Origin: a virus
Lineage: Duplodnaviria > Heunggongvirae > Uroviricota > Caudoviricetes
IMG/VR virus record: IMGVR_UViG_2841729706_000003
Span: 41,668-105,667 of that record
Length of the DNA stretch: 64,000 nt
Reading direction: 5' to 3' (one strand)
The notes beneath the pieces were generated by a model that saw nothing but the letters and a program-made list of their open reading frames with translations, was not told where the DNA came from and ran no database searches. Shown here piece by piece: positions 3,284 to 50,459 of this stretch. A program made the position numbers and the translations under genes. The first letter of the stretch is position 1; the number at the start of each line of letters is the position of its first letter.

Positions 3284-4248
3284 CAGAACAAAATAGGAAC
3301 ATACACCTAATGAGTCAACGCCCTGCTGTGGTCGTTAACCATGAATAGGAAGATTTGTGGACGCCCCTATTACCGGTTGCGAGATGTTTCAATTTGTAAC
3401 AGATTGGCATTCGGGCGTGATAACCCGGATTGGAATAGGCGCGAGTGCGCCAAACGGTGCGGTTCGCTTGGCGGCGACGCACGAACCTGGCTTCGGCCGG
3501 GGGCGGTGCGTCATGTCCAGGCGAAAGCTAAAAGCCGCCGGCTGGTCTTCCAACCAGTTATCAACCCCCGGCTCTGCGCCACACGTAGCAGCAGAGCGAA
3601 CAAAAAGCATTCATTCTACCTAAACTTTGTTTGGGCGCGGTGCCCATTGGCAACACGTATTCAGATTCAAGGAAGGCGATAAAAGAATGGAAGATATCCT
3701 CGCGGCGGGGGCCGCTACCGAACGCATCCAGTGCCCGGCAGAATGCAGAAAATGGCGATTCTCGCCTGGCAGCAAAGTCAATCACATCGGCGGTGATATG
3801 CCTGCCGTGGTCATGGGCCGCACTCTTACCGGGAATGGTCGGGAGCTCTACCAGATATTCGTGCTTTCCACAGAAAGCGCGCCGGTAAAATTCTTCCTCG
3901 GAGATTATTTGAAGGGATAGCCGGCGGAAGTTGGCGGCGTTGGGTATCCGGTTATACCCGAAAAGCGAATCCGGTGATAACAGAAAACCCGCCGAACTTG
4001 CGACCGGCGGGTTGACTATTGCGCATGTGAGATACGGGAAAGTTAGCGCGTGATGCCCAGCGATTCTCGCCGCATCGTTACGGCAAGATGTCGGAGACCT
4101 GCCGCGCTGGCGGCATGATGACTTGCGGCGTAGCTAGCCTTCTCCCTGATGTCCGCTCCGAGTCGAGGCTCATCCCGGCTTACCGTCTTGCACATTGCCG
4201 ACTGCTTGTCGTGCCATTGCGCCGCCAGTTCGTAGGCCTCGGCTTTAT

Positions 4249-7566: not shown

Positions 7567-9455
7567 GCCACTGCCCTCCTTGGTTCGTTGTCATTCGCGG
7601 CTTGCACGCGGAGAACGGGGCGTGCGGCTCGCCACTTGCCATTCTGCAGCGTGATCAAAGTGCGCTTGCCGTTGGGATACTGGACGATGTGCGCAACAGC
7701 CCACGAACTCGGCCCTTTGTTGTAGCCATGGCGCAGGTTCATCGCTCCAGCGCAGTACACGCCGTCCATGATTTCAGGCGAATGCTTGTCGCCGATCGAC
7801 ATCTTCCGGCCGATACGCGCGAAGCCAGAGATTGTGCCCTTCGAACCGTTCGCGCCTCTAAACCCATGGTTTCCGCATTCCACGCCGTCGACAACGAAGC
7901 TCGCGCCGTCATGAACCCACTTCACGCCATCCAGTCCATCGTCGGACAGCATGCGCACGGCGGCCTCTAGCAGGCTGAATGTCGGCACGGGCTCGCCCGC
8001 GTCGAGAGCCTTCGCCTGTGCCTCCCGTGCGGCCAGGTAGGCGTCATCAAGCTTCAGGCCGTATCGGACGTTGATGCCGTCATTCCTGTACCGACCTTCC
8101 CGAATGTATCGTTCCAGACCTAGGTCGTGATTGCTCTCGACCACCACAGGAGTGATGCCGGCGCGCCGAAGACGCGTGAGGAACCTAGCCACGGCCGCAA
8201 CTTCATCCATAACGCTATCTCGACCACGCACAGCCATTTCATAGAAATGGGCGTTGTCGTTGGCGTGGTGATGGCTTCGCGTTTCGTTGTCGAAGACGTC
8301 GTGCGCCATCACGACGTCTGGCTGCAGCGTGTCGATCACATTGTCCCGGTACGTGGTGGTGGTGTCCGTGCCAAAACCGAATGTGGCGAGGGCGTTTTGA
8401 TGGTCAAGCTTGCGCTCATGGACGTCACCGCACACTACGGCCCGAACTTTGTGACCAGTCGATACCTTCCCGTTGGAGACGAAGATATCTAGGTCGTAGA
8501 ATGACCCATCATCCGCCGCGCTGATTTGGCGTGGGAAGATATCGCCGACGGCGTCAAACTCGACGATCGTGGCGCCAATGATGTGATGAAAGATGCTCTT
8601 AATTCCAGCCTTGCGCGGTATGACCTTCGGCTGCGTAACCGCCCCCGTTGTCATAACCTGATGCGCCTGCACGGCGGGATCGGTCGACGGAACCGACTTC
8701 AGCTGAAGCTTGGCATGTGGGAATACGGCCCATCTGCCGCGGCTGTACGTGACAAGATCAGAGATTGGTCGCGCCGCGGTGGGTAGTGTGTTCATCTCGC
8801 CAGCGAAAATGAAGTTTCCGCCGACTTCCATCTGGCCGAATGCGATGAAATCCTGAATGAGCGGCGAATACTGCCGAGAGGTCGGGGAGTTTTCGTTGAA
8901 CCAAGAGGTTTCGTAGGTCCAGGGGCCGACCACTATTTCCGCGCCGATGTGGGCTGCGAACGCGCGAAGGTTTGTCCAGAACTGCTCATGGACTGGAGCG
9001 TCGTTCTGCGCCCCGGTAAACAGGTATTTCCGATTTCGGCAGTCGGCCACAGGGGCGACGCGAAGGGTGTCAGATACCCACGTTTTTGGCGCTCGTTCCG
9101 ACTCGACGTAGTCTTCCTCGTTCCGGTCATACCTAAGACCGGTTTGCGCCTCGACATGCACTGCCTCTGGATTGATGAGAGGGTAACGAGTCCCGGTCAT
9201 CATTTCCACGAGCCACTCCCGCATAGTCTCGGCTCGTGCCGAGGCGTGCTGCCCGGCTGACTTCTTTGTCGTGGTGGCTACAGGTAAGACAGGGTCGGCC
9301 AGCAACCCCTGTGCCGTTGCCCGCTTGATGCTGTCCTGTAGCGCGCCGCGTGACAAGCCCAAAGCCAAGGCTGTTTTGGACTGGTTGCGATCGTTGGCCA
9401 GATACGCAGAAACGCGCGCAGCCAGAACTTCGTCTGGAATCGGTGGTGTTGGCAA
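7563..9455 (-). CDS. Large protein with N-terminal HTH-like region and C-terminal calcineurin-like metallophosphoesterase domain
   Basis: Metallophosphatase motifs VVCGDVHE, AHDVFDNE and VVESNHDLG in order. The N-terminus NDRNQSKTALALGLSRGALQDSIKRATAQGLL looks like a sigma-70 region-4 type HTH. Confidence 0.5.
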   Translation of the reverse strand: MPTPPIPDEVLAARVSAYLANDRNQSKTALALGLSRGALQDSIKRATAQGLLADPVLPVATTTKKSAGQHASARAETMREWLVEMMTGTRYPLINPEAVHVEAQTGLRYDRNEEDYVESERAPKTWVSDTLRVAPVADCRNRKYLFTGAQNDAPVHEQFWTNLRAFAAHIGAEIVVGPWTYETSWFNENSPTSRQYSPLIQDFIAFGQMEVGGNFIFAGEMNTLPTAARPISDLVTYSRGRWAVFPHAKLQLKSVPSTDPAVQAHQVMTTGAVTQPKVIPRKAGIKSIFHHIIGATIVEFDAVGDIFPRQISAADDGSFYDLDIFVSNGKVSTGHKVRAVVCGDVHERKLDHQNALATFGFGTDTTTTYRDNVIDTLQPDVVMAHDVFDNETRSHHHANDNAHFYEMAVRGRDSVMDEVAAVARFLTRLRRAGITPVVVESNHDLGLERYIREGRYRNDGINVRYGLKLDDAYLAAREAQAKALDAGEPVPTFSLLEAAVRMLSDDGLDGVKWVHDGASFVVDGVECGNHGFRGANGSKGTISGFARIGRKMSIGDKHSPEIMDGVYCAGAMNLRHGYNKGPSSWAVAHIVQYPNGKRTLITLQNGKWRAARPVLRVQAANDNEPRRAVA

Positions 9456-9782: not shown

Positions 9783-9950
9783 GGTAGCTCCTCGATGTGG
9801 TGATCTACGGTTGGTAGCCGTAGGTGGTGGTGTAGTCAGTGGTGTAGGTTTTGGTGATTCCAACATTGGATTATTTTGTTACATTTGTCAATGTTGTTGT
9901 AGCCTAAGCAATAAAAAAGCCCCGCCACCTTGCGGCAACGGGGCTTATGG

Positions 9951-10238
9951 TTAGCTCGAGCGACGTGGCGGCTGCCGTTCAAACGCGCGATCGATGCGCT
10001 CACTGATAGAGTCTATCCGGTTACCGATGCCCTCGATCGCGCGCAGCAGCTGTGCCGTTTGCTCCTGCATGCCTTGCTTGGTCGCGAACACCTCAGCGGC
10101 GTGAACCTTATGCGCGGCCAGATCGCGCTGAGCCTTTTCTCCCTTCTCGCCGGCCTTCTGGATCATGTCGTACATTTTCCAGAACACACCGGACAGCGCG
10201 GCGAAGATCGCTAGGGCGATACCTACTTCGACTGTCAT
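9951..10238 (-). CDS. Holin-like small membrane protein (one N-terminal transmembrane segment plus coiled-coil tail)
   Basis: From internal Met MTVEVGIALAIFAALSGVFW; sits at the start of the lysis cassette. Confidence 0.35.
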   Translation of the reverse strand: MTVEVGIALAIFAALSGVFWKMYDMIQKAGEKGEKAQRDLAAHKVHAAEVFATKQGMQEQTAQLLRAIEGIGNRIDSISERIDRAFERQPPRRSS

Positions 10239-10314
10239 CCTACCAGACCTCGCACGCCTACCGCGAAAGACAGCACGGCAAGCCAGGCCCAGCAATATGC
10301 AGATTTTGCATACA

Positions 10315-18840: not shown

Positions 18841-19520
18841 TGGGGAACTCCGGACAGCACAACGCCAGTCATCTTGCGCGTTGGCGCACTGACAGAAATC
18901 TTACCCTTCTGGCGACCCCAGAAATGCTCTTGTTCGCCCACAACCGTAACATCGGCAAAGAAGTTGTCGGTCGCACTTCGAATCTTCTGGCTATCGTTGG
19001 AACGTGTATCCGGGTTGCCGCGCGTCATCTCTTGAGTGTGCGAGGCACACGTCAGGACGATCGAACCAACGTCGTTTTCTTTAGGGGTGGTGATTTCAAC
19101 CGTATCGACAAAGCCAACGAAGCGGCAGAAAGCCGGCGCCACTATCTGGCGCGTTTCGAGGCTTAGTAGGCCGCGATAGATTTCCACGCCGGCCTGCTTC
19201 AAGTCGTAGCCGCGAACGATGTTCTCAACCGCAGGATCCAGTTGCGACATTTGGATTGTCACATTCTGGATCGTCAAATTGGAAACAAGCGGAATATCGC
19301 TGATCTGAATCAGCGTGCCGGAACCTTCGAAGTTCCGCGTCACCGAAAGGCCGGTGTTCGGATTCAAGACAGGCGCCGAAACGTCGCCAACGTCAGACCA
19401 GAAACCGTACGGGAACGTCGCGCCGGTATCTCTGTCGCGTGCCGTAATCCAGAGGAAGTCGCGGGCAACCAAGGCGCGCGCCTGCAATGCCGCCAGGTTG
19501 GCAGCCGAAATGTTGCGCAT
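18837..19520 (-). CDS. Tail protein, DUF2163 / RcGTA g13-like (BR0599 family)
   Basis: Position and size between the distal tail protein and the host-specificity protein; N-terminal MRNISAANLAALQARALVARDFLWI... pattern typical of the family (recalled from memory). Confidence 0.45.
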   Translation of the reverse strand: MRNISAANLAALQARALVARDFLWITARDRDTGATFPYGFWSDVGDVSAPVLNPNTGLSVTRNFEGSGTLIQISDIPLVSNLTIQNVTIQMSQLDPAVENIVRGYDLKQAGVEIYRGLLSLETRQIVAPAFCRFVGFVDTVEITTPKENDVGSIVLTCASHTQEMTRGNPDTRSNDSQKIRSATDNFFADVTVVGEQEHFWGRQKGKISVSAPTRKMTGVVLSGVPH

Positions 19521-19586
19521 GTTGTCTCGCTGGGAATGAAAAGGCCCGCTCGAGGCGGGCCACTAGGTAGGGCTTCAGGCGCGGGC

Positions 19587-22842: not shown

Positions 22843-23226
22843 CTATTCGAAGTTTTCCGTTGGGGAGGTCGTCGAGTCGTTCTCCGCCTCCCCCTCGGCT
22901 TCCCCCAGTTTTTCCTCCGGCGCTCCTATTAGCCCCGCAGCCAAAACTGCCTGCGCGACCGGAACATTCTCCATCGGAGGTCGGGCTTCGACGTAGGTGC
23001 GAACCTTTTTCAAGGAGTCAGCCGGTGCCATGCCTCCGCCTATCAGACCGAGGCGAATGACGTTGGACACGTCTTCCACGCGCCACTGGCCAGAATGCAG
23101 GCGATTGAGCACGACGTATGGCCCGGCATCCGTCTTTTCCTGAAGCTCGCCAAGTTGGCCCCATCCTAGGCGGAAAGCATACGTGCCGTCCGCCCAGTCC
23201 AGCTCAATGCGTGCGTCGCGGCTCAT
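22843..23226 (-). CDS. Tail assembly chaperone (gene-transfer-agent family protein)
   Basis: Position directly after the major tail gene; MSRDARIELDWADGTYAFRLGWGQLGELQEKTDAGPYVVLNRL pattern as in RcGTA g10. Confidence 0.45.
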   Translation of the reverse strand: MSRDARIELDWADGTYAFRLGWGQLGELQEKTDAGPYVVLNRLHSGQWRVEDVSNVIRLGLIGGGMAPADSLKKVRTYVEARPPMENVPVAQAVLAAGLIGAPEEKLGEAEGEAENDSTTSPTENFE

Positions 23227-23671
23227 TACGGCGTTGCCGTCCAGAGCTTCGTAACCTGTCCATCGGACTGCATAGAGACAGAAAGCTGCACTCGCCCACC
23301 CTGCTCTGCCGACGGATTGAAGCTGTCGATGTGGAACGGGCCGGTGAACGACAGAACGCCAGTCGCGAACTCAATCTCGACCTTGGCGTTGACAGGATCG
23401 GTACTGTACGCCGCGTCCGTCCAATCCTGAATGGATTCCGCCGCTACTAGCCCTTCGCCAGTAATGGAGGCCGAAAGGCTTTCCGTGTCGCGCGCAATCC
23501 AGAATGGGGCGTCGGGATCGTCGCAATCCGGGATCGTTATTTCGGTGAGGTTCTTGGAAAGCGTGAAGGCTTTCGACGTAAAGCCGCATGGTGCGGTGAA
23601 TACCTCCGGAGAGGCACCGTCGCCAAGAAGAATGCGGAACTTTCCAAATTTGGAAGTAGTCGGCTGCGCCA
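23226..23671 (-). CDS. Major tail protein (TP901-1/GTA g9 family)
   Basis: From Met MAQPTTSKFGKFRILLGDG; about 148 aa; upstream lies the shared 30-nt hairpin element. Confidence 0.55.
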
Positions 23672-23685
23672 TAAAAAGCGACCTT

Positions 23686-23715
23686 TCAGATATGAAAAAG
23701 GCCGCTCTTGGCGGC
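23686..23715 (-). promoter_or_regulatory. 30-nt stem-loop plus U5 element immediately upstream of the major tail gene (copy 1 of 2)
   Basis: Coding-strand sequence GGCCGCCAAGAGCGGCC TTTTT CATATCTG, identical to the copy upstream of the major capsid gene. Confidence 0.5.
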
Positions 23716-23745
23716 CGATGTGGTGGGAGTTTTTGGTGCTGAGAG

Positions 23746-24162
23746 CTATGGCTGCTCAATGATCGCTGTGAAGCGAACCGAGGCCTGTTTCAGCGTGCCG
23801 TTGGCGATGTAGTCGGTGCGCCAATGTTCGAACGTAGCTAAGGCGTTCTGCGCCAGCGTAATGTCGGAGCCGCGGAATGCCTTTCGGATGGCGTCGGCAA
23901 TGTTCCGCACTTGCGGGTGGCCAGGCTCGATCGACCATGCGTCGATCTGGATCATCACCTCGCCGCCATCGATACAATCGGCATCTTCCGACTGAAAATT
24001 GGACGGGCCGATGCTGATGTATGGATAAGTCGTAGCCTGCACGTTGCCGTTTTGGTCAAGCGGCGGCTGGTCATAGGATTTCTGGCCGACCAGTGCAGTA
24101 ACAGCAGCAAAAGACCGAAGGCGCTGAATGATAACGCCTTGCAGTTCAAGAACCGGGTCCAT
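23746..24162 (-). CDS. Tail completion / neck protein (DUF3168-like)
   Basis: Position between the gp10-like and major tail genes; 138 aa. Confidence 0.4.
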   Translation of the reverse strand: MDPVLELQGVIIQRLRSFAAVTALVGQKSYDQPPLDQNGNVQATTYPYISIGPSNFQSEDADCIDGGEVMIQIDAWSIEPGHPQVRNIADAIRKAFRGSDITLAQNALATFEHWRTDYIANGTLKQASVRFTAIIEQP

Positions 24163-24621
24163 CTAGCCTCCTGCCGCTATCGCCTTCGCAGACTTTGTAA
24201 TGGCGCGTGTGATGCGCGACTTGGTGCGACGCCGGAGCGCGCGGTAGCTGACAAAGAAGAAAGGTTGCGCCGACGTGCCGGGGTGCTGAGTGCCTGCATA
24301 GAGGCCGCCATTTTCGTGGGCCTTGGTGGCGAATTCGACTAGGTGGGCGTAGCGCACCTTCGAATTGCCGGCATAGATCGTCAGTGTAAGCTTGCCGCTT
24401 GCGGACTTCACCGAAGCAATGCGCTGGCTATATTTTGGCGCGTCACCCCAGGTCCAACCGATGCTGTCGCGGAGTTCACCGCTATCGACAGCAACCAAAG
24501 ATTTCATCATTGCGACGATTTCGTTGGCACCTTGCTCCATCGCTGTTTTGATTGCCGCTTCAGCAGCGGCCGGCAACTTCTTGAGCTTGCGGTTCAGCCG
24601 ACTAAGGCCGAGTACCGTCAC
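24163..24621 (-). CDS. HK97 gp10-family head-tail joining protein
   Basis: ...KVRYAHLVEFATKAHENGG... motif typical of the HK97 gp10 family. Confidence 0.5.
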   Translation of the reverse strand: MTVLGLSRLNRKLKKLPAAAEAAIKTAMEQGANEIVAMMKSLVAVDSGELRDSIGWTWGDAPKYSQRIASVKSASGKLTLTIYAGNSKVRYAHLVEFATKAHENGGLYAGTQHPGTSAQPFFFVSYRALRRRTKSRITRAITKSAKAIAAGG

Positions 24622-24971
24622 GATGGCTCACCCTCAACAACCAGCATCTCAAGATAAGCGTTCCGCTCATCCGGATTTACGATCGCCTTGATATTGTAAG
24701 TCCTGCCGGTTCTCGCGTTCACAGCCCGCCAGGCAGGAGTGATTTCTCGCGTGCGGGCGGAACTGCGAACGGTCAAGAGAAACGGCTGTACGCCCGTTAG
24801 GCGGGCCGCTATGACGGGCTCGCTGCCAAGCCGTGGAGCCAGGCGAGCCGGCTCGGTGAACTGGTCGGCAAATGGACCCGTGACATCGTTTCCATACCCA
24901 TCCGGCACAACGCCGCGAACCTGAAAGGTAATGCGCTCCGACAGTGAGCCGGCGCCGTTACGTTTTCTCAT
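24618..24971 (-). CDS. Head-tail adaptor (head closure) protein
   Basis: RITFQ...TPAWRAVNAR... pattern of the Phage_H_T_join family; position after the connector. Confidence 0.5.
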   Translation of the reverse strand: MRKRNGAGSLSERITFQVRGVVPDGYGNDVTGPFADQFTEPARLAPRLGSEPVIAARLTGVQPFLLTVRSSARTREITPAWRAVNARTGRTYNIKAIVNPDERNAYLEMLVVEGEPS

Positions 24972-25145
24972 CGGCAGCCTCCGGCCTCTCGCCTTTACGT
25001 GGTGTCTTCAGGCGCACGGCCTTGCCCGCCGCAACGGCGGCATCCGCCGCCGCGCGCGTGACATTGCCCGTCCAGCCGGCCTTATAGGCGATCGTGCTTC
25101 CGGGAAGGCGGAAGTCGTGGTCGGCCGTAAAGTGGAGCCAGGGCA

Positions 25146-25676
25146 TCAGGTGTAAAACCTGTAGTTCGAGAGAAGGCTATCGAAAGCCGACCAGTCAGCA
25201 TCATCGACACTGCCGCGGTTCTCGTAGAGATCCTCGATGCGTAAAAGCATTGCGTGTTTCACGGCGGGTGGGCAATTGGTGAATCCAGCAACGGCCGTAA
25301 GGGTAATGAGCGAACCGGGCTGTGTAGCCGGCCAAGACTGGCCGTACTTCAGAACGAGGCCGTCGCCACGTAACTCGAAAACCGTGTCTGCGAGGACCAC
25401 AGTAGCGCCGCCCGTATCGACATACTCGATATCAGCATCGGTGACTGGCGTCACCGGCAGTCTTGCCAAATCCGCCCAGCACGTCGCCTGCGCCTCAACC
25501 ACCTGCGATGCAAAGCGCGCGCCGCAGTACTTCTCAACATGATCTCGAGCGACAGAAATCAAACTACCGATCAGCGCATCATCGTCGTCGTGAAAGACGT
25601 TAAGATGCCTCTTCGCCTCCACCAGCGAGATCGGCTCCGCCGACGGCGCTGTCGTCACCTTCGGTGGATACCACAT
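25146..25676 (-). CDS. Head-tail connector protein (gp6-like)
   Basis: From Met MWYPPKVTTAPSAEPISLVEAKRHLNVFHDDDDALIGSLISVARDHVEKY, a typical gp6-like connector N-terminus. Confidence 0.5.
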   Translation of the reverse strand: MWYPPKVTTAPSAEPISLVEAKRHLNVFHDDDDALIGSLISVARDHVEKYCGARFASQVVEAQATCWADLARLPVTPVTDADIEYVDTGGATVVLADTVFELRGDGLVLKYGQSWPATQPGSLITLTAVAGFTNCPPAVKHAMLLRIEDLYENRGSVDDADWSAFDSLLSNYRFYT

Positions 25677-25910
25677 CAGGTTTGCCCTTCTTCCGCTTCT
25701 CGATGACGGGCGACGCAACAGCGCGTTCAATTCGCACTTCGACTGCAGGAACCGCATAACCAGCGTCGATTAGCCGGACAGCTTCTTCCTGCGGAAAATC
25801 GCGCTCATCGCCCGGCGCGAGCGAATATTCGTTACCCGCTAGGCCGATCAACATCTTGATATTCATAATCTCTCCTTGGAAGGAGGCGGGCCGAAGCCCG
25901 CCATCCAAGA

Positions 25911-27191
25911 TTAGGCAGCAGCCATTACGAGGTGCTTGACCGCAGCGGTATCACCGAGTTCGCCGTCAAAACGGATCAGGCCTGCGATGCCGAGATCCGG
26001 CCAGAACCGCTCACGAAGCACGCCGATAACTGGCGAGCCAACCTTGCGGACGAAGTACTTCGAGAAATCGCCGAAGATGACCGGCTTCGCAGACGCTGCG
26101 ATAAGCGGAACGTCGTCGTTGATCTCGTAGCGGAAGCCGAGCAGGGTGCCGGGCTCACCCTTCTGGATGTCGCCCGCCGACCAGATGTAGCGACCTTCGG
26201 CGTCCTTCAGTTTGCGGATGGCCGCGAGCGTCAGATCGGCAAACTGCCAGCGGGTCTTCGGCGAACGGCGGTAGGCCGCGTTGACCGAATGCAGCAGGTC
26301 GATGAGTTCGTCCGTGGTCAGTGCTGCGGCTGCGGCGGCAGTCTTGCCGAGCGAGGATGCGGTCACAACGCCATTCGGGTCGCCAGTGCCATCACCGATC
26401 GTCAACTCGCGGTTCGCGATACGGCCAAGACGTTCGCCGAGCAGGCTGCCGAGAAGCGACTCCATATTGAAGATAGAGTCAGCAGCCAGCTCCATCGAGA
26501 ACTTCACGAACTCGGTATCGTAGACGTAGGCGGCCAGTTCCTTGTTACCGAAGACAGCGTCCTGCGAACCGTCATCCGCAATCGCCGCGCCTTCAGTATG
26601 CTTGGTACCGGTCTTGGACGTGTCGTCGATGGTCGGGATGTTGATGACATTACCGCCCGAGGTCGTAATCACCGTGGCAATGTCTTCATTGTACATCGGA
26701 CCCCAGTCCTTCATCGAACGGATGATGAAGTCTGCGAGTTCGACAGGCACGGTATAGCCGCCAGCAGAGGCAGTTCCGGTGTTCTGGGCGCGGAATTCCT
26801 TGGCAGACTGCACGCCGGCCTTCAGAATCGTACGCTCTTCAGCGTCGAGTTCGTCAAGCGAGGCGCCACCAGCGAGGAACTTGTAGAATACCTCGCGGTA
26901 CTCCTTCTTTTCGCCTTCATCTTGGCCGCGGACATCGGTGTCGGCGCCCGTCGGACGCTGGCGCTTGCGCTCTTCGTCAGCGCGATCGGCGAGGCGCTTT
27001 TCGGCGTCTGCAAGGCGCTGCTCGCGCTCGATCAGCTTCTCGATGCGGTCGAACTCGACCATGATCGTGTCGTGGCGAGCGTCGAGTTCCGCAGCGCGGG
27101 CTTCATCGGTGTTGGTCTTGATTTCATCAAGCGCTGCACGCGCCTGCGCGACAAGCGAGCCGCGCTTTTCGTTCAGGTCCTTAAGGGACAT
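25911..27191 (-). CDS. Major capsid protein, HK97 family
   Basis: N-terminal coiled-coil delta domain followed by ...ASAGGYTVPVELADFIIRSMKDWGPMYN...; 426 aa. Confidence 0.75.
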   Translation of the reverse strand: MSLKDLNEKRGSLVAQARAALDEIKTNTDEARAAELDARHDTIMVEFDRIEKLIEREQRLADAEKRLADRADEERKRQRPTGADTDVRGQDEGEKKEYREVFYKFLAGGASLDELDAEERTILKAGVQSAKEFRAQNTGTASAGGYTVPVELADFIIRSMKDWGPMYNEDIATVITTSGGNVINIPTIDDTSKTGTKHTEGAAIADDGSQDAVFGNKELAAYVYDTEFVKFSMELAADSIFNMESLLGSLLGERLGRIANRELTIGDGTGDPNGVVTASSLGKTAAAAAALTTDELIDLLHSVNAAYRRSPKTRWQFADLTLAAIRKLKDAEGRYIWSAGDIQKGEPGTLLGFRYEINDDVPLIAASAKPVIFGDFSKYFVRKVGSPVIGVLRERFWPDLGIAGLIRFDGELGDTAAVKHLVMAAA

Positions 27192-27198
27192 GGTATCT

Positions 27199-27230
27199 CC
27201 AGATATGAAAAAGGCCGCTCTTGGCGGCCA
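27199..27230 (-). promoter_or_regulatory. 30-nt stem-loop plus U5 element immediately upstream of the major capsid gene (copy 2 of 2)
   Basis: Identical 30 nt GGCCGCCAAGAGCGGCCTTTTTCATATCTG followed by GGAGATACC-ATG of the capsid gene. Confidence 0.5.
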
Positions 27231-27299
27231 TAGGGGTGTGATGGCAGGACTAGGTCCGGCCCTCCGGCCGTGCCGGGTGACTTCAGCCGTTGAGGCTGG

Positions 27300-27932
27300 C
27301 TACGTGGCGTCCTGCCGGATGCCCCGAATTCGCTGTTCCATCGCAGCGCGTTTTTCGGCCACCCGCCTTGCGGCAGCGGCAGCGTCAGATGCGCGCTTTT
27401 CTGCGGCATCCCTAGCGGCGCCGCCTTCGGCCCTTGCCGCTTCAAGCGAGCGAAGGCCAATCGTCGTGTCTTCGTAGGCAGGCCAAGCAACTGCCGACAC
27501 TTCATGAAGCTCAAGTTTGTGAATGGTACGAATCGGCGTATCGCCGGTTTCGTCCCAAGTTTCCTTGGTCACCCGAAAGCCAAAGCTCATTCCGCTAATG
27601 TCGCCGCGCTCGACCAAGACCCACAGGTCGTTGCCGTCGCTAGTGTCGGGCACGTCGATTTCAACGCGAAGCCCGGTTCCGTCTTCGGCTAGCCGAAGCG
27701 TGCCGGACTTAGTCCGGCCAATCACGCGGCCAGGGTCATGATCGACCAAAGCGCGGATATCGCCGTTGATTACGTCTGCGAATGCACCGGAAGCTATCTT
27801 CTCCTGAAAATAACCTCCGATGTCGGCCAGCCTGTCAAACTTGGCGGCGTAGCCAACAAGTGTTCGCTTGTCGCTTTCGGCGCGCACCTCAACCCCAAGG
27901 CCAGATGCGCGCTTCTCAATGTTGGTCGTCAT
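27300..27932 (-). CDS. Prohead maturation protease, HK97 family (S78)
   Basis: ...GYAAKFDRLADIGGYFQEKIASGAF...GMSFGFRV... characteristic of HK97 prohead proteases. Confidence 0.7.
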   Translation of the reverse strand: MTTNIEKRASGLGVEVRAESDKRTLVGYAAKFDRLADIGGYFQEKIASGAFADVINGDIRALVDHDPGRVIGRTKSGTLRLAEDGTGLRVEIDVPDTSDGNDLWVLVERGDISGMSFGFRVTKETWDETGDTPIRTIHKLELHEVSAVAWPAYEDTTIGLRSLEAARAEGGAARDAAEKRASDAAAAARRVAEKRAAMEQRIRGIRQDAT

Positions 27933-32167: not shown

Positions 32168-33514
32168 CTATTCGGATTTCGGTGTGGAATTGACATCATG
32201 AAGAAGTCTCCTCGCCGTGTGGAATCTAGCGTGGCAGTTTGCGCAAACACGCATCACCGAACCCGTCGTGGGATCGGTATGGCGGGACAGCGGAAACCAG
32301 TCTGGGAACACTCCCAAGCAACTTTCGCACAGCACCAGCGGCTTGCTCGTAATGGGCTTTTGAAGCAGGGCCTTGGCTCGGATGCGATCAAAACTGTAAC
32401 CGCGTCCTGCTCGGTTGAAGTCCTTCACGAGCCTGTTTCGTGCTTCGGTGTATGCGTTGGTGAAGCGGTGATCGAAGTAGTTGAATACCTCGGTTCGCCA
32501 GTTCTCGACCGTGGCCGCCAGCGCGTCAAACTCCAACCGAACCGTGTCGGGGATCGACGCCTTCCACTCGTCAAACCGTCGTTCTGCGTCGGCTCGGTCC
32601 GTTGCCTCCCAGATGGAATAGAACCCTTCCTTGGCCGTCCATCCGTCCTTGAGCAACGGGTTGTTGTCGAGCATGCCGTCAAGCATCAGTCGCCTCATCG
32701 GAGACAGCTTCGACGGGCGGATGTGCATCAGCAATCGGCCGCGGTGCGGGTTCTTCCGCATCTTTCCCTTCGCGCCCTTGCGGAACCTGCTTCGGACGAG
32801 GTCGAGCTTCTCATTCGCCTTGCTGACGACGTGCCACTTGTCGGTGACGACGATGGCGTTCGGCAGCAGCTCTCTGGCGACTTCGGCGTACGGTCCCCAC
32901 ATGTCGATGGTCACGATCCGAACACGCTCGCGACCAGGCATCCACGACAGCCAGTGGTTGACGGCAGGCTTCGCCATGGAGTCGATCATGTCCAGCAGAC
33001 GGCGGTTGGCAACGTCCACGAACACAGTCCGCTTCCGCTTCCGAATGGTCAGCTCGTCGATGCCCAGGATGATGACGGGCTCCCGAAGGTTTGCGCCGAC
33101 GGCCATCTGAACATGCTCGTCGCAGATGTTCCGAACCGTCTTCTCGTCCACATCAACATGCCGGGCAACAGCGCTGTAGGTCTGCATGATGCCCTGTTCG
33201 ACGATGTAGTCCGTGAGCCGCTTCGTCATGCGGCGGTTGCTGTCCATCGCTGGCAGCTCCTGCATGGAAGTCTCCCCGCACTCCCGGCATTTGTACCGCG
33301 CGACTTCGGCGCGGATGATCAGCGGCTGGCCGAAAGTCGGGATGTCCCGGTAGTTCACGAGCTTCTTGCCGTGCTTGTACAATCGGTCGACCGATCCGCA
33401 TTTCGGGCAGTCCCGAGCGTCGGTGTCGTAGGTCGCCTCAGCGACGGTTTCGTTCTGTTGGCGGTCAAGGACGTGCACGGTCCAGCCCTCCAACCACAGC
33501 GCGTTGTTTGCCAT
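32168..33514 (-). CDS. ISL3-family DDE transposase
   Basis: N-terminal double zinc-finger CPKCGS...H...RYKCRECGETSMQELP plus HTH and DDE region, typical of zf-ISL3/DDE_Tnp_ISL3. Confidence 0.65.
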   Translation of the reverse strand: MANNALWLEGWTVHVLDRQQNETVAEATYDTDARDCPKCGSVDRLYKHGKKLVNYRDIPTFGQPLIIRAEVARYKCRECGETSMQELPAMDSNRRMTKRLTDYIVEQGIMQTYSAVARHVDVDEKTVRNICDEHVQMAVGANLREPVIILGIDELTIRKRKRTVFVDVANRRLLDMIDSMAKPAVNHWLSWMPGRERVRIVTIDMWGPYAEVARELLPNAIVVTDKWHVVSKANEKLDLVRSRFRKGAKGKMRKNPHRGRLLMHIRPSKLSPMRRLMLDGMLDNNPLLKDGWTAKEGFYSIWEATDRADAERRFDEWKASIPDTVRLEFDALAATVENWRTEVFNYFDHRFTNAYTEARNRLVKDFNRAGRGYSFDRIRAKALLQKPITSKPLVLCESCLGVFPDWFPLSRHTDPTTGSVMRVCANCHARFHTARRLLHDVNSTPKSE

Positions 33515-33568: not shown

Positions 33569-34045
33569 TCATGGGCGCTCCATAATCAAAAGGCCGCCCT
33601 TGGTCAGTCCACAACGCCGCCATCCAGCGGCCACAAAGCAGAAGCCCGGATTGCGGCTCCTGACTGCTTTCGAATTGACGTAGGTGTAGTGCCTTTCACC
33701 AGGCCAGCAGTGATCAGCGATTGCGTCAGCCTGTCGGATAAGGTCGGACGCGAGGTTCGGACTCTCGTTCCTGAAGACGGCGCAGTTGATCCCTTGCTCT
33801 CCGCTGGCATCGATGAACTTGCGCCAGACGAACATAGCGTCTCCATCTCCGGTTCGAAGAACGATCTTCTCCCCAGGTCCAGCGAACAGCACGCGCTTGC
33901 GGCCGTCTCGGTATCGATAGCACGAGTAATGGCGTTCATAGAGGTCCAAACAGGTCCGGTCGCCATCCTTGGTGAGGTACCACAGAGGCTCCGTCACAAG
34001 CATCCCTTTCCACACTATAATCCGAAACGGAGCATAGCATGTCAT
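33569..34045 (-). CDS. Hypothetical protein (passenger ORF inside the IS, upstream of the transposase)
   Basis: 158-aa ORF lying inside the terminal inverted repeats. Confidence 0.35.
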   Translation of the reverse strand: MTCYAPFRIIVWKGMLVTEPLWYLTKDGDRTCLDLYERHYSCYRYRDGRKRVLFAGPGEKIVLRTGDGDAMFVWRKFIDASGEQGINCAVFRNESPNLASDLIRQADAIADHCWPGERHYTYVNSKAVRSRNPGFCFVAAGWRRCGLTKGGLLIMERP

Positions 34046-34311: not shown

Positions 34312-34386
34312 TGGTCAGGATGGCCGGACTCGAACCGGCGTTCCGAGCTTCCAAAGCTCAGCGATTAGCCACCATCTTCCACCCTG
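34312..34386 (-). tRNA. tRNA-Pro (anticodon UGG), phage-encoded, 3' CCA encoded
   Basis: Cloverleaf by eye: acceptor CAGGGTG/CATCCTG (one G-U pair), anticodon stem TGAGC/GCTCG with loop TTTGGAA (U33, UGG, A37), T-arm GCCGG-TTCGAGT-CCGGC, discriminator A, CCA. Atypical G8 and a weak D-stem. Confidence 0.5.
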
Positions 34387-35394: not shown

Positions 35395-36297
35395 CTATGC
35401 GGCCGATTTTTTTAGCTCGATGGTGAGATTGTCGTTTGCCGCCATGAGTCTCTTGCGTCCACCGCCTCTTTTATCGGCGTACAGCCGGGACTGGCCGGCC
35501 GCTACACCAATCTCGGCAAAGCTACCTGCAACCATTGCCTTATCTAGTGTTTCTCGGTCTTCTTTCTTCAGCGCCGTAAGCGTTTCGTCCCATATCTCGC
35601 GATTAACGATTGATGTGCACATATCCTGCCACATCATCGCGCCGGTCTCGCCCTTCTTGCCCTTCTGCATTCCAACGAAACTATCGGCTACGCGAGATGA
35701 ACCACATGGCAGGCCAGGCTTCAGTTTTTTTACCTTTGGCATTACCGGGGTATTTGCGATGGCTTCTGCCAAAATCGACCGGCTCTGGCTTGCTGTTAAA
35801 GACGGCCCGTTCTTACGCTTTTTCCGAGGGACGTATCTTGGCTCAATTGTCTTAAGCACCCTTGAAAAGTACAGGTTGCTCTGCTCAAGTTCGGCGTTCG
35901 TGTAATCCTTCCCGCCGGCTTGCTGTTTTGCCTTCTCCACAGTGCCGAGCATGGCACCAATGGGCATTCTGAAGTCCGCCTGTATCACTTTGTCGTCGGG
36001 GCCGAGAGCGTATCCCTTCTCTCTCTGGGCTCCATCGCTAAACGAGAGCCGGCCAATTCGGACAATCTGTCCGGCTTCATTCCTCTCGACCGGGAACGTT
36101 GCCTGCCGCAGTATCTCCTGAACTGACGGCGTGACTAGAAGATTTCTCTCAAAGCTGAAGTCCGCCGTTTCTTCTGGGTCGGCGTTGTCGTTTGCAGCCA
36201 CTACACACCAATTAGTCTGAATTGGCTCGATCGGACCTTCTGGCCTATCACGGTACGCAAGCAGCGCGCTTCCAAAGTCCTTGTATGCGGAGGTCAT
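35395..36297 (-). CDS. Hypothetical protein
   Basis: 300-aa ORF; start overlaps the stop of the small acidic ORF (ATGA). Confidence 0.4.
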   Translation of the reverse strand: MTSAYKDFGSALLAYRDRPEGPIEPIQTNWCVVAANDNADPEETADFSFERNLLVTPSVQEILRQATFPVERNEAGQIVRIGRLSFSDGAQREKGYALGPDDKVIQADFRMPIGAMLGTVEKAKQQAGGKDYTNAELEQSNLYFSRVLKTIEPRYVPRKKRKNGPSLTASQSRSILAEAIANTPVMPKVKKLKPGLPCGSSRVADSFVGMQKGKKGETGAMMWQDMCTSIVNREIWDETLTALKKEDRETLDKAMVAGSFAEIGVAAGQSRLYADKRGGGRKRLMAANDNLTIELKKSAA

Positions 36298-43210: not shown

Positions 43211-44323
43211 TTAGGCTACCCAACGTGCGCCGTGCAATGCGCGGCTTTCGTCGACCTTCGTCTGGCTGGTGGTGTTTGCAGCGATGCGAGCGCGGATGAC
43301 TTCGCGCGCCTCTTGGCCTGCGCGGACCATGAAGGCAGGTGACCGTAGATCAACAGGCAAGCGTGGGATGGCCTGAAGCGCAAAGTCTTTCTGTGGGAGA
43401 TTACTGTTCGCTGCCACGAAGTCGGCAAGGTCGTCGGCTCGACGCTTCACACCAGCCTCAACCGATGCCGCATATTCTCGCGCCGCATCGGCGTCAGCTT
43501 CATCAAGCAGCGGCAAGACGTCATCCAGGCCACCTGACAGAACAAGCGCTAGGATGTTCTTTTCCTGCAATATACTGTCTTTGGCGCGGTGTTTCAGAAC
43601 ATAGTCTTCGCCCTTTGCCTTAACCATCGTGCCGTCCTCGAATCGGACAACAAATCCCTCGGCGCCCTGTATTGCTCTGGCGTAGGCGAGGAATTCTGTG
43701 GCTGTGGTGTGTTGGGGCGTGTGGTGCTCGACCAAATCAATGCACGATTCACGAGAGAATGCCCATTGGAGTGAAGTTGGCAGATACTCGCCAGACGCGT
43801 TCTTTCGGATGGCAAGAAGAGTAAGGTCACTACGATCGTAGCGAACCACAATGCGGTTATCCGGAGCCGTCCACTCAAAGATTGGTGTCGCGCCGGCCTC
43901 CAACATGGCGTGACAGGCGTTTCGAAGCTTGGAAGTGATATGCCGCTCCGCCCTAACCGCATGATCGGTTCGCCCCATGCGCGTCATGAAGACCACTTCG
44001 CCATTGACGATCGCAGGATGGATCATCGAGCCGTCAAGCTTCTCCATGATTGTGTGCGGCCGACTGAAATCCAGAACATGAGGCTGCGTTTCTGGCCGCT
44101 CTCCGACGTTGAAGAATTTGTGAAACGGGCGAGCCAAAATTCTGCCATCGGGCGCAAACTTGATGCCGCGGCATTCTAACCGAGCCGGGTGGTCGAAGCT
44201 GTCAGGCAACGCGTAAACGTAGTCGATGACAGTGTAATCGCCCTTGTCGGCGACTACGAACTCCTGCCTGCCGTCGAGGTGCGGAAGAACATCGTCAATG
44301 TGGTTGATGCGGAAGTGGGTCAT
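43211..44323 (-). CDS. RNA ligase, Rnl1-like nucleotidyltransferase
   Basis: Motif I MEKLDGSM (KxDG), motif IV EGFVVRFEDG, motif V VLKHRAKD; about 370 aa from Met MTHFRINH; overlaps the end of the kinase-phosphatase gene. Confidence 0.55.
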   Translation of the reverse strand: MTHFRINHIDDVLPHLDGRQEFVVADKGDYTVIDYVYALPDSFDHPARLECRGIKFAPDGRILARPFHKFFNVGERPETQPHVLDFSRPHTIMEKLDGSMIHPAIVNGEVVFMTRMGRTDHAVRAERHITSKLRNACHAMLEAGATPIFEWTAPDNRIVVRYDRSDLTLLAIRKNASGEYLPTSLQWAFSRESCIDLVEHHTPQHTTATEFLAYARAIQGAEGFVVRFEDGTMVKAKGEDYVLKHRAKDSILQEKNILALVLSGGLDDVLPLLDEADADAAREYAASVEAGVKRRADDLADFVAANSNLPQKDFALQAIPRLPVDLRSPAFMVRAGQEAREVIRARIAANTTSQTKVDESRALHGARWVA

Positions 44324-45255
44324 GCAGCCTCTCTCCACTCGCCAACGCGCATATCCACGACCGAAACATTCGGCAGGCCATCACCCGCAAGAATGTCACG
44401 CAAGGCGGACTGCATGCGCTCGTGGTGCACTTCGACCAGCGTCTTATCGCCGATCAACACTTCGTTGCGCCAGCCAGCCGTCGCCTTCTTGTCGGCAAGC
44501 GGTCGATCGACAACAACATAGGAAATGGCAGAACCGACTGGCGCCAGCGACACGCACGCCAAACGGTCCCGCCTGCGAAGGTTGGTGGCGTCGATGCATA
44601 CCGAAAGCCCGCTATCGAGCCGAGCCTTTGCGATTCGATGCAGGGCAGTGAAAACGTCTTCGTTTCGCGACTGGTCTTGAAAATTGCCAGTATATTCGGC
44701 ACGGAGATCGTCGCTCGAAATGTATCCTGGCAAGCCCTTAGCGTATTTGGTCTTGCCCGCTCCGCTCGGACCCACCATCAAGGTCAAGAGCGAGCCGTCA
44801 TGAACAGGCGGAATTATCCGCCCTTCGTCCTCCCAGTTGGCGACAACCTGAAAGCAGGGAATCCCTTCTGCCCGCCACATATCGACCACGCGCTGCCGAT
44901 CGTCGTAAACGAGGTCAGGCCGCCCGTGTTCCTGCGACAACCAGTAGCGCTTCAGAACAGCGTCTGGCGTGCTGTCTCCTGCTGCCCGCATGTGCTGCAG
45001 GTAGCAAGGGTCAATGCCCATATCGGAAAGCCAGTTTTCGGTTTCGGCTCGAACGACGTCGCTGCGGGCCGACCAAATGCGAACTTTGTGGCCAGCGCGG
45101 AGGTGTGCGTGAAACGTCTCGATGACGTGAGAAACGCCACGATCAAAGACGCATTCACGGAAGAACGCCGCCCAATCTTTCTTGCCGCCGCGGACGTGGT
45201 GCACGCGATGGCCGATATCGGCAATAGTGCCGTCTAAGTCAAAAATGACGAACAC
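44320..45255 (-). CDS. Polynucleotide 3'-phosphatase / 5'-kinase (Pnkp) with HAD phosphatase N-terminal and P-loop kinase C-terminal
   Basis: HAD motif I FDLDGT, motif IV VYDDRQRVV, and Walker A GPSGAGKT in the C-terminal half; GTG start after CACCACCTGAGGAG. Confidence 0.6.
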   Translation of the reverse strand: MFVIFDLDGTIADIGHRVHHVRGGKKDWAAFFRECVFDRGVSHVIETFHAHLRAGHKVRIWSARSDVVRAETENWLSDMGIDPCYLQHMRAAGDSTPDAVLKRYWLSQEHGRPDLVYDDRQRVVDMWRAEGIPCFQVVANWEDEGRIIPPVHDGSLLTLMVGPSGAGKTKYAKGLPGYISSDDLRAEYTGNFQDQSRNEDVFTALHRIAKARLDSGLSVCIDATNLRRRDRLACVSLAPVGSAISYVVVDRPLADKKATAGWRNEVLIGDKTLVEVHHERMQSALRDILAGDGLPNVSVVDMRVGEWREAA

Positions 45256-48682: not shown

Positions 48683-49741
48683 CTACACCCGCATCGGCAT
48701 CAATACGGCAAGCAACGCGTCGTTGCCTTCCGCCGTGAACAGTGTCGGCGAACCGCCGTCGTTGAGCGCGATGCGGACAGTGGCGCCGGGAAGATTGGAG
48801 AGGAGTTCGCCGAGATAGGCCGCGTTGAAGCCGATTTCGATTGCATCGTCGTCGTAGACGGCAGGCACTTCTTCGGTTGCGCTGCCATGGTCGGCAGAAT
48901 TGACGGACAGGGTGACATTGCCGTCATCGATATTGAGGCGAACGGCACGCCCACGCTCAGTCGAGACGGTGGAGACGCGTTCCACAGCCTTTTGCAGCAC
49001 GTCCTTCTCGATGCTGACGAGTTTATCGTTTCCGGTCGGAATGACGCGCTGATAGTCTGGGAACGTTCCGTCGATAAGCTTCGACGTCAGAATAGCGTCG
49101 GGCGTTGTGACGCGCACCTTTCGTTCCGACAGGGCCAGCTTGACCTGGCCTTTTGGCAGCAGCGACACGAGCTTGCGAGGCAGGATGACATCAGGAATGT
49201 CATCGCTGTCCTGCCCGATGTGCCGAGCAAGGCGGTGTCCGTCGGTTGACACGGCAACAAGCTTGCCGTCAGCGGTATGCAGGAAAACGCCATTCAAGTA
49301 ATAGCGCGTCTCTTCTGTGCTGATCGCAAAGCTTACCGGAGCCACGAGCGCAGCCAGGTCAACGTCGAATTCAACGTCAAACTCGCCGGCATTAAGGTCC
49401 GGATAGTCGCTTGCGGGAAGCGTCTGGAGCGACCACTTCGCGTGGCCCGACTTGACGACAAGCGTGCCGTCAACGAGCTCGAGCGAAATGTCGCCACCCG
49501 CCTTCTTGACGATGCTGTCGAGCAACTTGGCATCAACCGTCGTGGTGCCAGGAACGGCATCAAGCACGGCAATGGAAGCCGACGCTTCAATGTCGAGGTC
49601 GGTGGCTTTAACAGTGAGCTTGCCATCTTCGACAGACAGCAAGACGTTTGACAGAATCGGGATAGTCGTTCGGGATTCGGGGATCTTCACAACGGCCGAA
49701 AGGACGCGCGAAAGATCGGCCTTGGAAAGGCTGATACGCAT
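48683..49741 (-). CDS. DNA polymerase III beta sliding-clamp homolog (phage-encoded)
   Basis: 352 aa; MRISLSKADLSRVLSAVVKIPESRTTIPILSNVLLSVEDGKLTVKATDLDIEA... matches DnaN N-terminal organisation; preceded by CCACACCACATGAGGAG. Confidence 0.6.
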   Translation of the reverse strand: MRISLSKADLSRVLSAVVKIPESRTTIPILSNVLLSVEDGKLTVKATDLDIEASASIAVLDAVPGTTTVDAKLLDSIVKKAGGDISLELVDGTLVVKSGHAKWSLQTLPASDYPDLNAGEFDVEFDVDLAALVAPVSFAISTEETRYYLNGVFLHTADGKLVAVSTDGHRLARHIGQDSDDIPDVILPRKLVSLLPKGQVKLALSERKVRVTTPDAILTSKLIDGTFPDYQRVIPTGNDKLVSIEKDVLQKAVERVSTVSTERGRAVRLNIDDGNVTLSVNSADHGSATEEVPAVYDDDAIEIGFNAAYLGELLSNLPGATVRIALNDGGSPTLFTAEGNDALLAVLMPMRV

Positions 49742-49796: not shown

Positions 49797-50405
49797 TTAG
49801 GCCTTAGCGCCCGCTGCAAGTTTGCGGTCTGCGTCGCTGAAGGAAGCCACGGCACCCCCAGACGCATAGGCCATAGACCGTGTGGCGAGTACGTTCATCG
49901 CGGCACCGTAGTTGCCGCCCTTCATGACGATAGTTGAGCCGAACGCGTTCCCAAGGCCGGCTCCTTGGGCGAAGGCGTCGAAGTCGGCGCCAATGAACAC
50001 CACGTCGAATTGCTTGGCGCGCAATTCGTCCAACATAGACTTCGCCGCATCCTTCTTAAATTCGCGACTGCCGTTTTCTGCGCCATCGGTGATGACGACG
50101 ATCGTCGCCTTCTTCGGTGAGTCTTGCCGAACTGTCGAAACTAGCTTGCCGATAGCGTCGTATAGAGGCGTCATGCCTCGAGGCCGGATTTCGTCTTCGC
50201 TGATCGGCTTCCAATCGCTTGCCTTTACGCCGCTGCGCAAGACAAGAAACGGATCTTGGTTGTCAAACGCGGCAACGGTAACTTCCGTCTTCTTTGTCGC
50301 CTTCTCACCTGCCAAACCGGCAACATAAGCATTCAAGGCGCCAATGGTCTCGGCCCACCGGGTTTGCATAGAGCCGGAACGGTCCAGCAGAATATAAGCC
50401 TTCAT
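49797..50405 (-). CDS. von Willebrand factor type A (VWA) domain protein
   Basis: MIDAS motif ILLDRSGSM, downstream Thr and Asp-Gly motif positions VVITDGAENG; start at Met MKAYILL after GGAGAG SD. Confidence 0.5.
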   Translation of the reverse strand: MKAYILLDRSGSMQTRWAETIGALNAYVAGLAGEKATKKTEVTVAAFDNQDPFLVLRSGVKASDWKPISEDEIRPRGMTPLYDAIGKLVSTVRQDSPKKATIVVITDGAENGSREFKKDAAKSMLDELRAKQFDVVFIGADFDAFAQGAGLGNAFGSTIVMKGGNYGAAMNVLATRSMAYASGGAVASFSDADRKLAAGAKA

Positions 50406-50459
50406 TTTTGCTCTCCTGATGTGGTTGGCGCGGGCTGGTGAGACCCGCGCCATGTTTAG

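Follow-up and report, generated by a model that had tools for sequence, protein, structure and literature searches.

A stretch of 64,000 nucleotides (nt) from a temperate tailed phage (positions 41,668 to 105,667 of the virus record IMGVR_UViG_2841729706_000003; "the window" is this whole stretch) carries two identical copies of a 30-nt module, a GC-rich hairpin followed by five T residues, directly ahead of the genes for the major capsid protein and the tail tube protein. On balance, we think that these copies and a third, related module are probably intrinsic (Rho-independent) terminators, conditional or leaky, within the co-directional lytic transcription unit. Hairpins of the same kind stand at the same two positions in many related loci, and comparison with these relatives shows that the perfect identity of the two copies is the outcome of a recent local event. 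The phage is a temperate siphophage like 16-3 and RHph_TM3_3_14B, and a 100% protein match shows that the prophage is integrated in Mesorhizobium sp. DCY119.

A duplicated hairpin in the late operon

A sequence search with the 30-mer GGCCGCCAAGAGCGGCCTTTTTCATATCTG gave exactly two 30/30 matches in the window, both on the minus strand; none would be expected by chance, and 100 dinucleotide shuffles yielded no match at all. The identical stretch runs from the first base of the stem to the first G of the Shine-Dalgarno (SD) sequence, and the flanks of the two copies differ on either side. The copies, located by exact-match search and folding, and the genes around them, assigned with Pfam, are as follows:

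27200-27229, minus strand: capsid-site copy of the 30-nt module, with stem GGCCGC at 27229-27224, loop CAAGA at 27223-27219, stem GCGGCC at 27218-27213, T5 at 27212-27208, the spacer CATATCT and then the SD sequence GGAG, its first G at 27200
23687-23716, minus strand: tube-site copy with the same parts, stem at 23716-23711, loop at 23710-23706, stem at 23705-23700 and T5 at 23699-23695
27300-27932, minus strand: prohead protease (Peptidase_S78), upstream of the capsid-site copy
25911-27191, minus strand: major capsid protein (Phage_capsid, PF05065)
23746-24162, minus strand: tail-completion protein gp17, upstream of the tube-site copy
23226-23672, minus strand: tail tube protein (Phage_tail_2, PF06199)

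The duplicate described in the original prediction is therefore real, with coordinates that were off by about one position and with a capsid ATG (27191) that lies 8 rather than 10 nt past the end of the repeat; the tube ATG (23672-23670) lies 14 nt past it. Pfam confirms the flanking genes, with the S78 protease before the capsid gene and gp17 before the tube gene, and the terminator architecture that had been described, a 6-bp GC stem, a 5-nt loop and U5, is complete. Intrinsic terminators have a GC-rich stem of at least 5 bp and a loop of 3 to 8 nt, and here all six stem pairs are G-C, while the T5 abuts the stem without an upstream A-run and is found on the transcribed strand only. Folded in isolation, the 30-mer adopts this hairpin at -12.3 kcal/mol (97.5% of the ensemble, z-score = -3.5), and a terminator scan from 16 to 35 kb placed both copies among its three top-listed sites.

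Both copies are co-directional with all flanking genes and lie in non-coding gaps, of 108 nt at the capsid site and 73 nt at the tube site, with stems that begin 70 and 29 nt, respectively, past the upstream stop codons. The gene order according to Pfam is portal, protease, module, capsid, connector/neck, gp17, module, tube, assembly chaperone and tape measure. We rejected a promoter inside the repeat after a sigma-70 consensus scan gave no promoter-like site near either copy and a reading of both copies by hand gave no plausible -10 element at leaderless spacing. A search of the whole window against Rfam 15 at the gathering threshold returned only tRNA-Pro, and a scan of 23600-27400 at E<=10 returned chance-level matches only. 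On the opposite strand, the TTTTTCAT tail gives rise to two frames that start with MKKAALGG; at only 90 and 16 aa, and antisense to coding sequence, they were rejected as a real plus-strand small gene and are artefacts, as had been supposed. The main practical value of the element lies in annotation, where it accounts for two spurious antisense open reading frames (ORFs) and indicates where genes truly start.

The genes for replication, packaging and the virion all lie on the minus strand, and lytic transcription is unidirectional for ~45 kb, the lytic genes being co-directional from the repressor-proximal early genes (~56.7 kb) down to ~9.9 kb. Only five clean hairpins with a T-run were found on the minus strand of the whole window, namely the three modules and the sites at 9944-9919 and 4011-3988. 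The elements that matter for the layout of the operon, in addition to the two copies, are as follows:

19539-19561, minus strand: third, related module, GGCCCGCCTCGAGCGGGCC-TTTT-CAT (GGCCCGC-CTCGA-GCGGGCC, T4), -14.4 kcal/mol
25885-25902, minus strand: GC hairpin GGCGGGC-TTCG-GCCCGCC, without a U-run, directly 3' of the capsid stop codon
9919-9944, minus strand: strongest terminator-like hairpin on this strand, -20.9 kcal/mol, T6, directly after the ORF 9951-10295
4011-3988, minus strand: clean hairpin with a T-run, from the window scan
56960-57700, plus strand: CI-type repressor gene

The third module differs from the repeat by one extra C-G pair, its loop CTCGA and its TTTT-CAT tail, and it lies in a 66-nt gap, 18 nt ahead of a minor tail gene (ATG at 19520; 227 aa) for which neither Pfam nor NCBIfam gave a match. 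The two exact copies and this related one are all inside the prophage. The three modules occupy non-coding gaps of 66 to 108 nt, whereas most neighbouring late genes overlap or abut, and hairpins fill essentially all real intergenic gaps of the late operon. The hairpin at 9919-9944 is likely to be the end of the late transcription unit. Downstream of the post-capsid hairpin come TCCTTCC-AAGGAGAG and then a small ORF that starts with the ATG at 25866. In phage 16-3, a version of the hairpin is one G-C pair longer (GGCGGGGC…GCCCCGCC). We also observed CTCCT…AGGAG self-complementarity around the SD sequence of the small ORF (25864-25884).

Recurrence in related loci and origin of the identity

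The original prediction had proposed a search of related phages for the element, and such a search showed terminator-like hairpins at both positions in many of them. We applied one uniform hairpin scan to 135 alphaproteobacterial loci (1.54 Mb), of which 53 were gathered via the capsid protein and 79 via the protease, together with phages 16-3 and TM3_3_14B. Terminator-like hairpins numbered 210 in the operon sense and 107 in antisense. In 55 of 123 loci (45%), a sense hairpin lies in the 60 nt that precede the capsid start, and these make up 26% of the sense matches in 0.5% of the sequence. The tube gene has one ahead of it in 17 of 70 loci (24%). Others precede the tape-measure gene (12/33 loci), lie just 3' of the capsid gene (14 sense matches) or occur near the operon start.

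These hairpins are strongly polar. When every GC hairpin within 50 nt upstream of the capsid start was collected without regard to its tail, 44 of 61 were followed by at least four T residues on the sense strand, as against 0 of 35 in antisense. The stems also show compensatory changes: at the tube site, GCCGCC/GGCGGC in one lineage corresponds to GCCACC/GGTGGT in another, and the capsid site has GGCTCGC/GCGGGCC and GCCCGCC/GGCGGGC among other stems. Different stems and loops stand at orthologous positions, and structure, rather than sequence, is what is kept. In nearly all cases, the U-run ends 2 to 12 nt from the SD sequence, and the base of the hairpin is 19 to 32 nt from the start codon. 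Taken together, the recurrence, the polarity and the compensatory stems argue that a polar hairpin with a U-run at the capsid and tube positions is a recurrent and selected feature of this group, and the placement 5' of these two genes, to which the original prediction had drawn attention, is no accident. The further idea that the element marks abundantly needed genes is weakened, as the third module precedes a minor tail gene and relatives often have a hairpin ahead of the tape-measure gene.

In sphingomonad relatives, strong hairpins (-15 to -25 kcal/mol, T4-5) lie directly 3' of the capsid gene with the tail genes downstream, and the capsid gene is flanked by two strong hairpins. As a separate observation, ten IMG/VR contigs from AT-richer phages (L063, L069, L071, L102, L109, L110, L114, L116, L123 and L128) carry GGTCGC-TTAG-GCGGCC-TTTTTCATATCTGGAGGCNCC-ATG, with a layout from terminator to SD sequence nearly as in the capsid leader of the window.

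The exact identity of the two copies calls for a different explanation from their recurrence. The closest relative, a Mesorhizobium zhangyense prophage (L001; 93% and 98% aa identity in capsid and tube), has a near-identical tube-site cassette, which differs by a single substitution and a T-run shorter by one, and a different hairpin, GGCTCGC-TTCG-GCGGGCC-T6, at the capsid site. Phage 16-3 has GGCCGCC-ATTGA-GCGGCC-T5 ahead of its major tail gene (NC_011103, 7992-8009) and none ahead of its capsid gene. This GGCCGCC…GAGCGGCC lineage is found at the tube site of L001, 16-3, L113, L137, L196, L164 and L165, where the orthologous loops vary (CAAGA, CATGA, CTTGA, CATTGA, CAATGA, CAGCGA), while the dominant capsid-site lineage in relatives, including those with the closest proteases (L129 and L130), is (G)GCTCGC…GCGGGC(C). 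In the window, both sites have the tube lineage. Given that L001 and 16-3 carry this lineage only at the tube site and that another one dominates ahead of the capsid gene in relatives, the tube site is the ancestral location and the capsid copy a recent one, the product of short-patch gene conversion, in which the tube cassette was copied within the genome onto an older, similar capsid-site cassette. The T5-CAT(AT) tail that the two lineages have in common offers microhomology for a short conversion tract.

A mosaic junction was considered as the source of the duplicate and rejected. The identity profile against L001 places the junction at ~26950, inside the capsid gene and at neither hairpin, with 55 to 79% identity from the portal to the first ~250 nt of the capsid gene and 88 to 100% from there through the head-tail and tube genes to ~22740. 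Capsid and tube leaders are more similar within than between genomes (permutation p = 0.003, window excluded). For instance, RHph_TM3_3_14B (TM3, L055) has the 16-nt CACCACATTTGGAGAC in both its capsid and its tube leader (~3715-3744 and 7605-7633), and both leaders of L164 and L165 contain the identical short stretches T6ATTGGAGAA / TTTTTTATTGGAGAA. This likeness may reflect occasional homogenisation or host-specific ribosome-binding optima.

The exact 17-nt hairpin with its T5 was also found in five further places:

L056: between gp17 and a tube gene that belongs to a different Pfam family
L061: directly ahead of a lambda-E-type capsid gene
L058: after an HNH gene
L057: after a small gene beside a CI-like repressor
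L060: between hpf and ptsN, on a bacterial contig

We judged this recurrence compatible with convergence, because the sequence space of a 6-bp GC hairpin is small and the collections are large. Two of the five contexts are ahead of capsid or tube genes (of other Pfam families), which is the base rate of such sites, and exact recurrence elsewhere was therefore rejected as significant. A search of viral contigs with the 17-mer GCGGCCTTTTTCATATC gave 67 matches, mostly unrelated terminators, and was informative for L113 only. The five further occurrences fit a generic terminator, whose phage contexts typically include capsid and tube leaders.

These comparisons bear directly on the suggestion that the exact duplication reflects selection on sequence and the binding of a protein or small RNA (sRNA). 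A sequence-specific site for a phage protein or sRNA, such as a nut/boxB-like or operator-like RNA, would explain the 30/30 identity, which extends over the loop and 13 nt 3' of the stem, and the pentaloop CAAGA has a superficial similarity to the lambda boxB loop, GAAGA. Nevertheless, the two hairpins of L001 differ from each other, with the cassette at its tube site only; tube-site loops vary in sequence and length among orthologues; the identical hairpin occurs in unrelated phages and closes unrelated genes, as in the bacterial hpf operon; no boxA-like partner was noticed when the flanks were read; and Rfam gave no match. We thus consider a dedicated binding site highly improbable, and a sequence-specific ligand is largely excluded by the comparisons; the perfect identity is a recent local event instead of a conserved property or a sign of sequence selection.

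Termination, stability or translation

The anatomy of the modules, their polarity and the ordinary end-of-gene uses of the same hairpin lead us to infer that they are probably intrinsic terminators. In each cassette, the GC hairpin and its U-tract are followed by a short spacer that reaches the ribosome-binding site, the whole set in one of the rare intercistronic gaps, and the modules at 27.2, 23.7 and 19.5 kb could act as conditional or leaky stops that halt stray, early or read-through polymerase ahead of the cistrons whose independent ribosome-binding sites are the strongest. In the late phase, the transcription machinery might pass them through dedicated antitermination, or simply since a terminator with a 6-bp stem and U5 is only moderately efficient, and the hairpin would then remain in the message as structural punctuation. 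The placement at capsid and tube may follow from the untranslated leaders that these genes have of their own, most of their neighbours being overlapping and translationally coupled. Efficient passage in the late phase would be expected because a leaky stop would oppose stoichiometry and because the strong post-capsid hairpins of relatives precede tail genes; read-through would thus presumably have to occur in the family.

The modules share with proteobacterial intrinsic terminators, which are L-shaped and unidirectional, the GC-rich stem, the short loop, the adjacent U-run, the polarity and the location after a stop codon. They differ from typical ones in that the repeat is inside an operon, only 8-14 nt from the SD sequence of the next, most-needed cistron, and in that the 6-bp stem is short and lacks an upstream A-tract, so that efficiency is probably moderate. 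Terminators that must be passed for particles to be made are also known from lambda Q/tR' and, in alphaproteobacteria, where processive antitermination of late or gene transfer agent (GTA) clusters is established, from GafZ, which bypasses terminators in the Caulobacter GTA cluster (terGTA consists of three 150-bp repeats; PMC11150451), and BrrG, which acts on the terminators T_bgtA-K in Bartonella (bioRxiv 10.1101/2024.11.20.624540). The GafZ and BrrG clusters are of the HK97 type, as is the one described here, and the window likewise has terminators within its late cluster, in the form of three modules inside the operon. In contrast, the characterised clusters have their terminators at the beginning, either within the leader or just past the first gene, whereas the window has three small canonical hairpins spread through the operon. 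An intrinsic-terminator cassette in a phage late operon is hence of a known kind and the duplication is a local copy; if this explanation is true, the modules are ordinary phage operon punctuation.

Several points weigh against this explanation. Placed right before the most-needed genes, a terminator reduces their mRNA relative to that of upstream genes unless the polymerase passes it completely, and a U-tract that abuts the SD sequence could equally mean a role in translation. About half of the relatives have no hairpin and, in its place, a CA-rich, G-poor, unstructured leader, so the element is dispensable. Furthermore, no antiterminator was identified in the window, unlike in the lambda Q, GafZ and BrrG systems. 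One of the candidates lies by the packaging genes and the late operon:

33569-34045, minus strand: gene for a 158-aa protein with no Pfam domain and a GNAT-like predicted fold

Its model (predicted local distance difference test, pLDDT, 79) matches GNAT acetyltransferases, not Q21 or lambda Q, and it was rejected as a Q-like antiterminator. The relatives 16-3 and TM3_3_14B encode sigma factors, which suggests late control based on promoters and not on antitermination. Phage sigma factors were in turn rejected as the late regulator of the window, in which homologues of TM3 EVB67_049 and of 16-3 p086, p087 and p107 were not found. A conserved 300-aa neighbour (35395-36297) gave no match in Pfam, NCBIfam or the PDB and no similarity to 16-3 p107. 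Separately, the 158-aa protein is unusually conserved, with 2705 homologues, the best 120 of which are 73 to 87% identical. A search of the literature gave nothing directly relevant on transcript mapping in 16-3-like phages or on terminators upstream of capsid genes.

Among alphaproteobacterial temperate phages of the HK97 type, a large share have polar, terminator-like hairpins immediately 5' of their capsid and tube genes, the opposite of the position expected of an attenuator, and this placement implies either late transcription that resists terminators or a positive, post-transcriptional role of the hairpins. One such role, which we regard as possible if somewhat unlikely, is that of a stabiliser or processing mark. 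After read-through, the hairpin would block 5'-to-3' decay by RNase J, which occurs in rhizobia, or by 5'-end-dependent RNase E upstream of the capsid and tube ribosome-binding sites; in a variant, cleavage in the AU-rich UUUUUCAUAU stretch would come first, and the hairpin would then guard the 3' end left on the segment upstream. In either variant, unequal half-lives of mRNA segments would set the protein ratios, much as segment stability in the Rhodobacter puf operon is controlled by intercistronic hairpins. The capsid gene is indeed bracketed by hairpins (27213-27229 and 25885-25902), as in the sphingomonad relatives, the distance from the hairpin base to the start codon corresponds to the 5' edge of a ribosome footprint, and a stabiliser serves the stoichiometry that is needed, which a leaky terminator, to its own disadvantage as an explanation, opposes. 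Yet a stabiliser needs no U-tract, and the 44 of 61 capsid-proximal hairpins with at least four T residues have them on the sense side only. A 5' stabiliser must also be at the very 5' end, with no upstream processing site evident, the third module and the hairpins before the tape-measure gene precede low-copy proteins, and the same hairpin closes ordinary genes elsewhere.

Known stability elements show the same partial fit. The hairpins of puf (Rhodobacter capsulatus), the repetitive extragenic palindromic (REP) sequence of malEFG (Escherichia coli) and papBA stand between cistrons of one operon with unequal protein output, as do those in the window; however, they are located 3' of the abundant cistron and have no functional U-tract, whereas the hairpins with U-tracts in the window are 5' of the abundant cistrons and only the one at 25885-25902 fits the stability-hairpin layout. 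In the 5' stem-loop of ompA and the STAB-SD of Bacillus thuringiensis cryIIIA, a stable structure lies just upstream of a strong ribosome-binding site, as it does here, but there the structure works from the 5' end of the transcript or close to it.

A role in translation initiation is unlikely in our view, even though the spacing speaks for it. The hairpin would shield the ribosome-binding site against the GC-rich RNA ahead of it, the single-stranded U-tract directly 5' of the SD sequence would serve as an S1-binding or standby enhancer common to the two most strongly translated genes, and termination would be a side effect. The U-run is 2 to 12 nt from the SD sequence in essentially all cases, hairpin-less relatives have the CA-rich, unstructured leaders mentioned above at the same place, and the capsid and tube leaders are alike within genomes, as in TM3, L164 and L165, with the window left out of the p-value of 0.003. 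On the other hand, this likeness may reflect just host-specific SD optima, and the CA-rich leaders show that accessibility does not need a hairpin, yet the stems are kept by compensatory change. Modules also stand ahead of minor tail and tape-measure genes. Moreover, the minimum free energy (MFE) folds pair the U-tract with the SD sequence, weakly at the capsid copy and within a -34 kcal/mol structure at the tube copy, and such pairing would inhibit translation rather than enhance it.

The structure at the tube copy may itself be part of a two-state switch:

23660-23718, minus strand: extended alternative hairpin, tube copy only, MFE -34.3 kcal/mol, z-score = -5.4

Here, the terminator and U-tract pair with the SD sequence (AAAGG), the AUG and codons 2-5 in a ~23-bp imperfect duplex that is mutually exclusive with the terminator hairpin. 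After read-through, refolding into this long duplex could hide the tube SD sequence and AUG, which would give a second lock on stray transcripts or an RNase III substrate. The MFE compares with -18.2 kcal/mol in shuffles, none of 200 of which was as stable, the predicted unpaired probability from SD sequence through AUG is 0.19 as against ~0.5 at other sites, and an independent sequence (L008) has the same arrangement (z-score = -4.1 to -4.8), with weaker cases in L018 and L113. We nevertheless hold a switch to be very unlikely, for the duplex is not formed at the identical capsid copy and leaves the repeat unexplained, it is not general (the mean z-score at tube sites is -1.4, with none in many relatives), it would repress one of the most-needed proteins, and the conserved N-terminus MAQ(P/A)TT constrains the codons that take part. 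T7 has intercistronic RNase III sites and T4 e and soc have hairpins that sequester the translation-initiation region. These resemble the tube copy only, with its duplex over SD sequence and AUG; at 6 bp, the module is too short for RNase III, whose sites are imperfect duplexes of at least ~20 bp, the capsid copy has no extended duplex, and no internal late promoter is known. For the terminator explanation, as for its rivals, phage 16-3 and Sinorhizobium meliloti offer a tractable system that carries the tube-site orthologue.

A two-hairpin motif and other features of the prophage

The gap between protease and capsid holds another structured element, located between the protease stop codon and the capsid-site module:

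27235-27288, minus strand: two-hairpin RNA motif ACCCGGC-loop-GCCGGAGGG-[GGCNGGAC-loop-GTCCTGCC]A, found with a covariance model
27276-27264, minus strand: hairpin H1 of the motif
27261-27243, minus strand: hairpin H2 of the motif
27298-27284, minus strand: extra hairpin H0

The linker contains an invariant, SD-like GGAGG without a start codon. Matches to the covariance model, one per locus, lie in the protease-capsid gap in 27 of 28 cases and at the tube site in none, and the loci belong to Rhizobiales and Sphingomonadales. In the alignment, which was fitted to the model and whose covariation should be read with this in mind, 93% of cells pair and 7 of 13 pairs have double changes; none of 500 shuffles reached the observed values, and sliding the alignment by 1 to 3 columns left only 24 to 50% of cells paired. 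The scan of 23600-27400 against Rfam 15 (E<=10) gave no match for the motif. It is a candidate for an uncatalogued cis-regulatory RNA and may be more novel than the repeat. As to function, put-like or STAB-SD-like activity are possibilities only, the invariant GGAGG being the point of likeness to 5' stabiliser and STAB-SD elements.

The motif and the repeat could also be parts of one arrangement. In this combined proposal, hairpin, U-tract and SD sequence would form a portable leader cassette installed before the most heavily translated virion genes, with a positive role and not primarily as a stop signal; after read-through, it would block exonucleases and/or enhance translation through its U-rich tract, jointly with the two-hairpin GGAGG motif where the capsid gene is concerned (by put-like antitermination or in a STAB-SD-like manner), and the homogenisation of capsid and tube leaders would reflect selection for a common expression module. 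We consider this proposal, taken as a whole, fairly unlikely, and continue to favour terminators in the late operon.

Other features of the window concern the state and the equipment of the prophage. An ISL3-family transposase gene (32168-33514, minus strand) separates the GNAT-like gene from the late operon, which starts with HNH/terS; an inverted-repeat search did not define the ends of the element. This insertion may separate the late genes from their promoter and leave the prophage crippled. The tRNA-Pro(UGG) gene (34312-34386, minus strand) is accompanied by genes for a T4 Rnl1-type RNA ligase and a polynucleotide kinase-phosphatase (43211-44338 and 44320-45255, both minus strand), a set that looks like tRNA repair, possibly to counter host anticodon nucleases. 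Finally, the early/replication region encodes a DNA polymerase III beta clamp, an SPFH/Band-7 protein and a VWA-domain protein (48683-49741, 52638-53495 and 49797-50453, minus strand).

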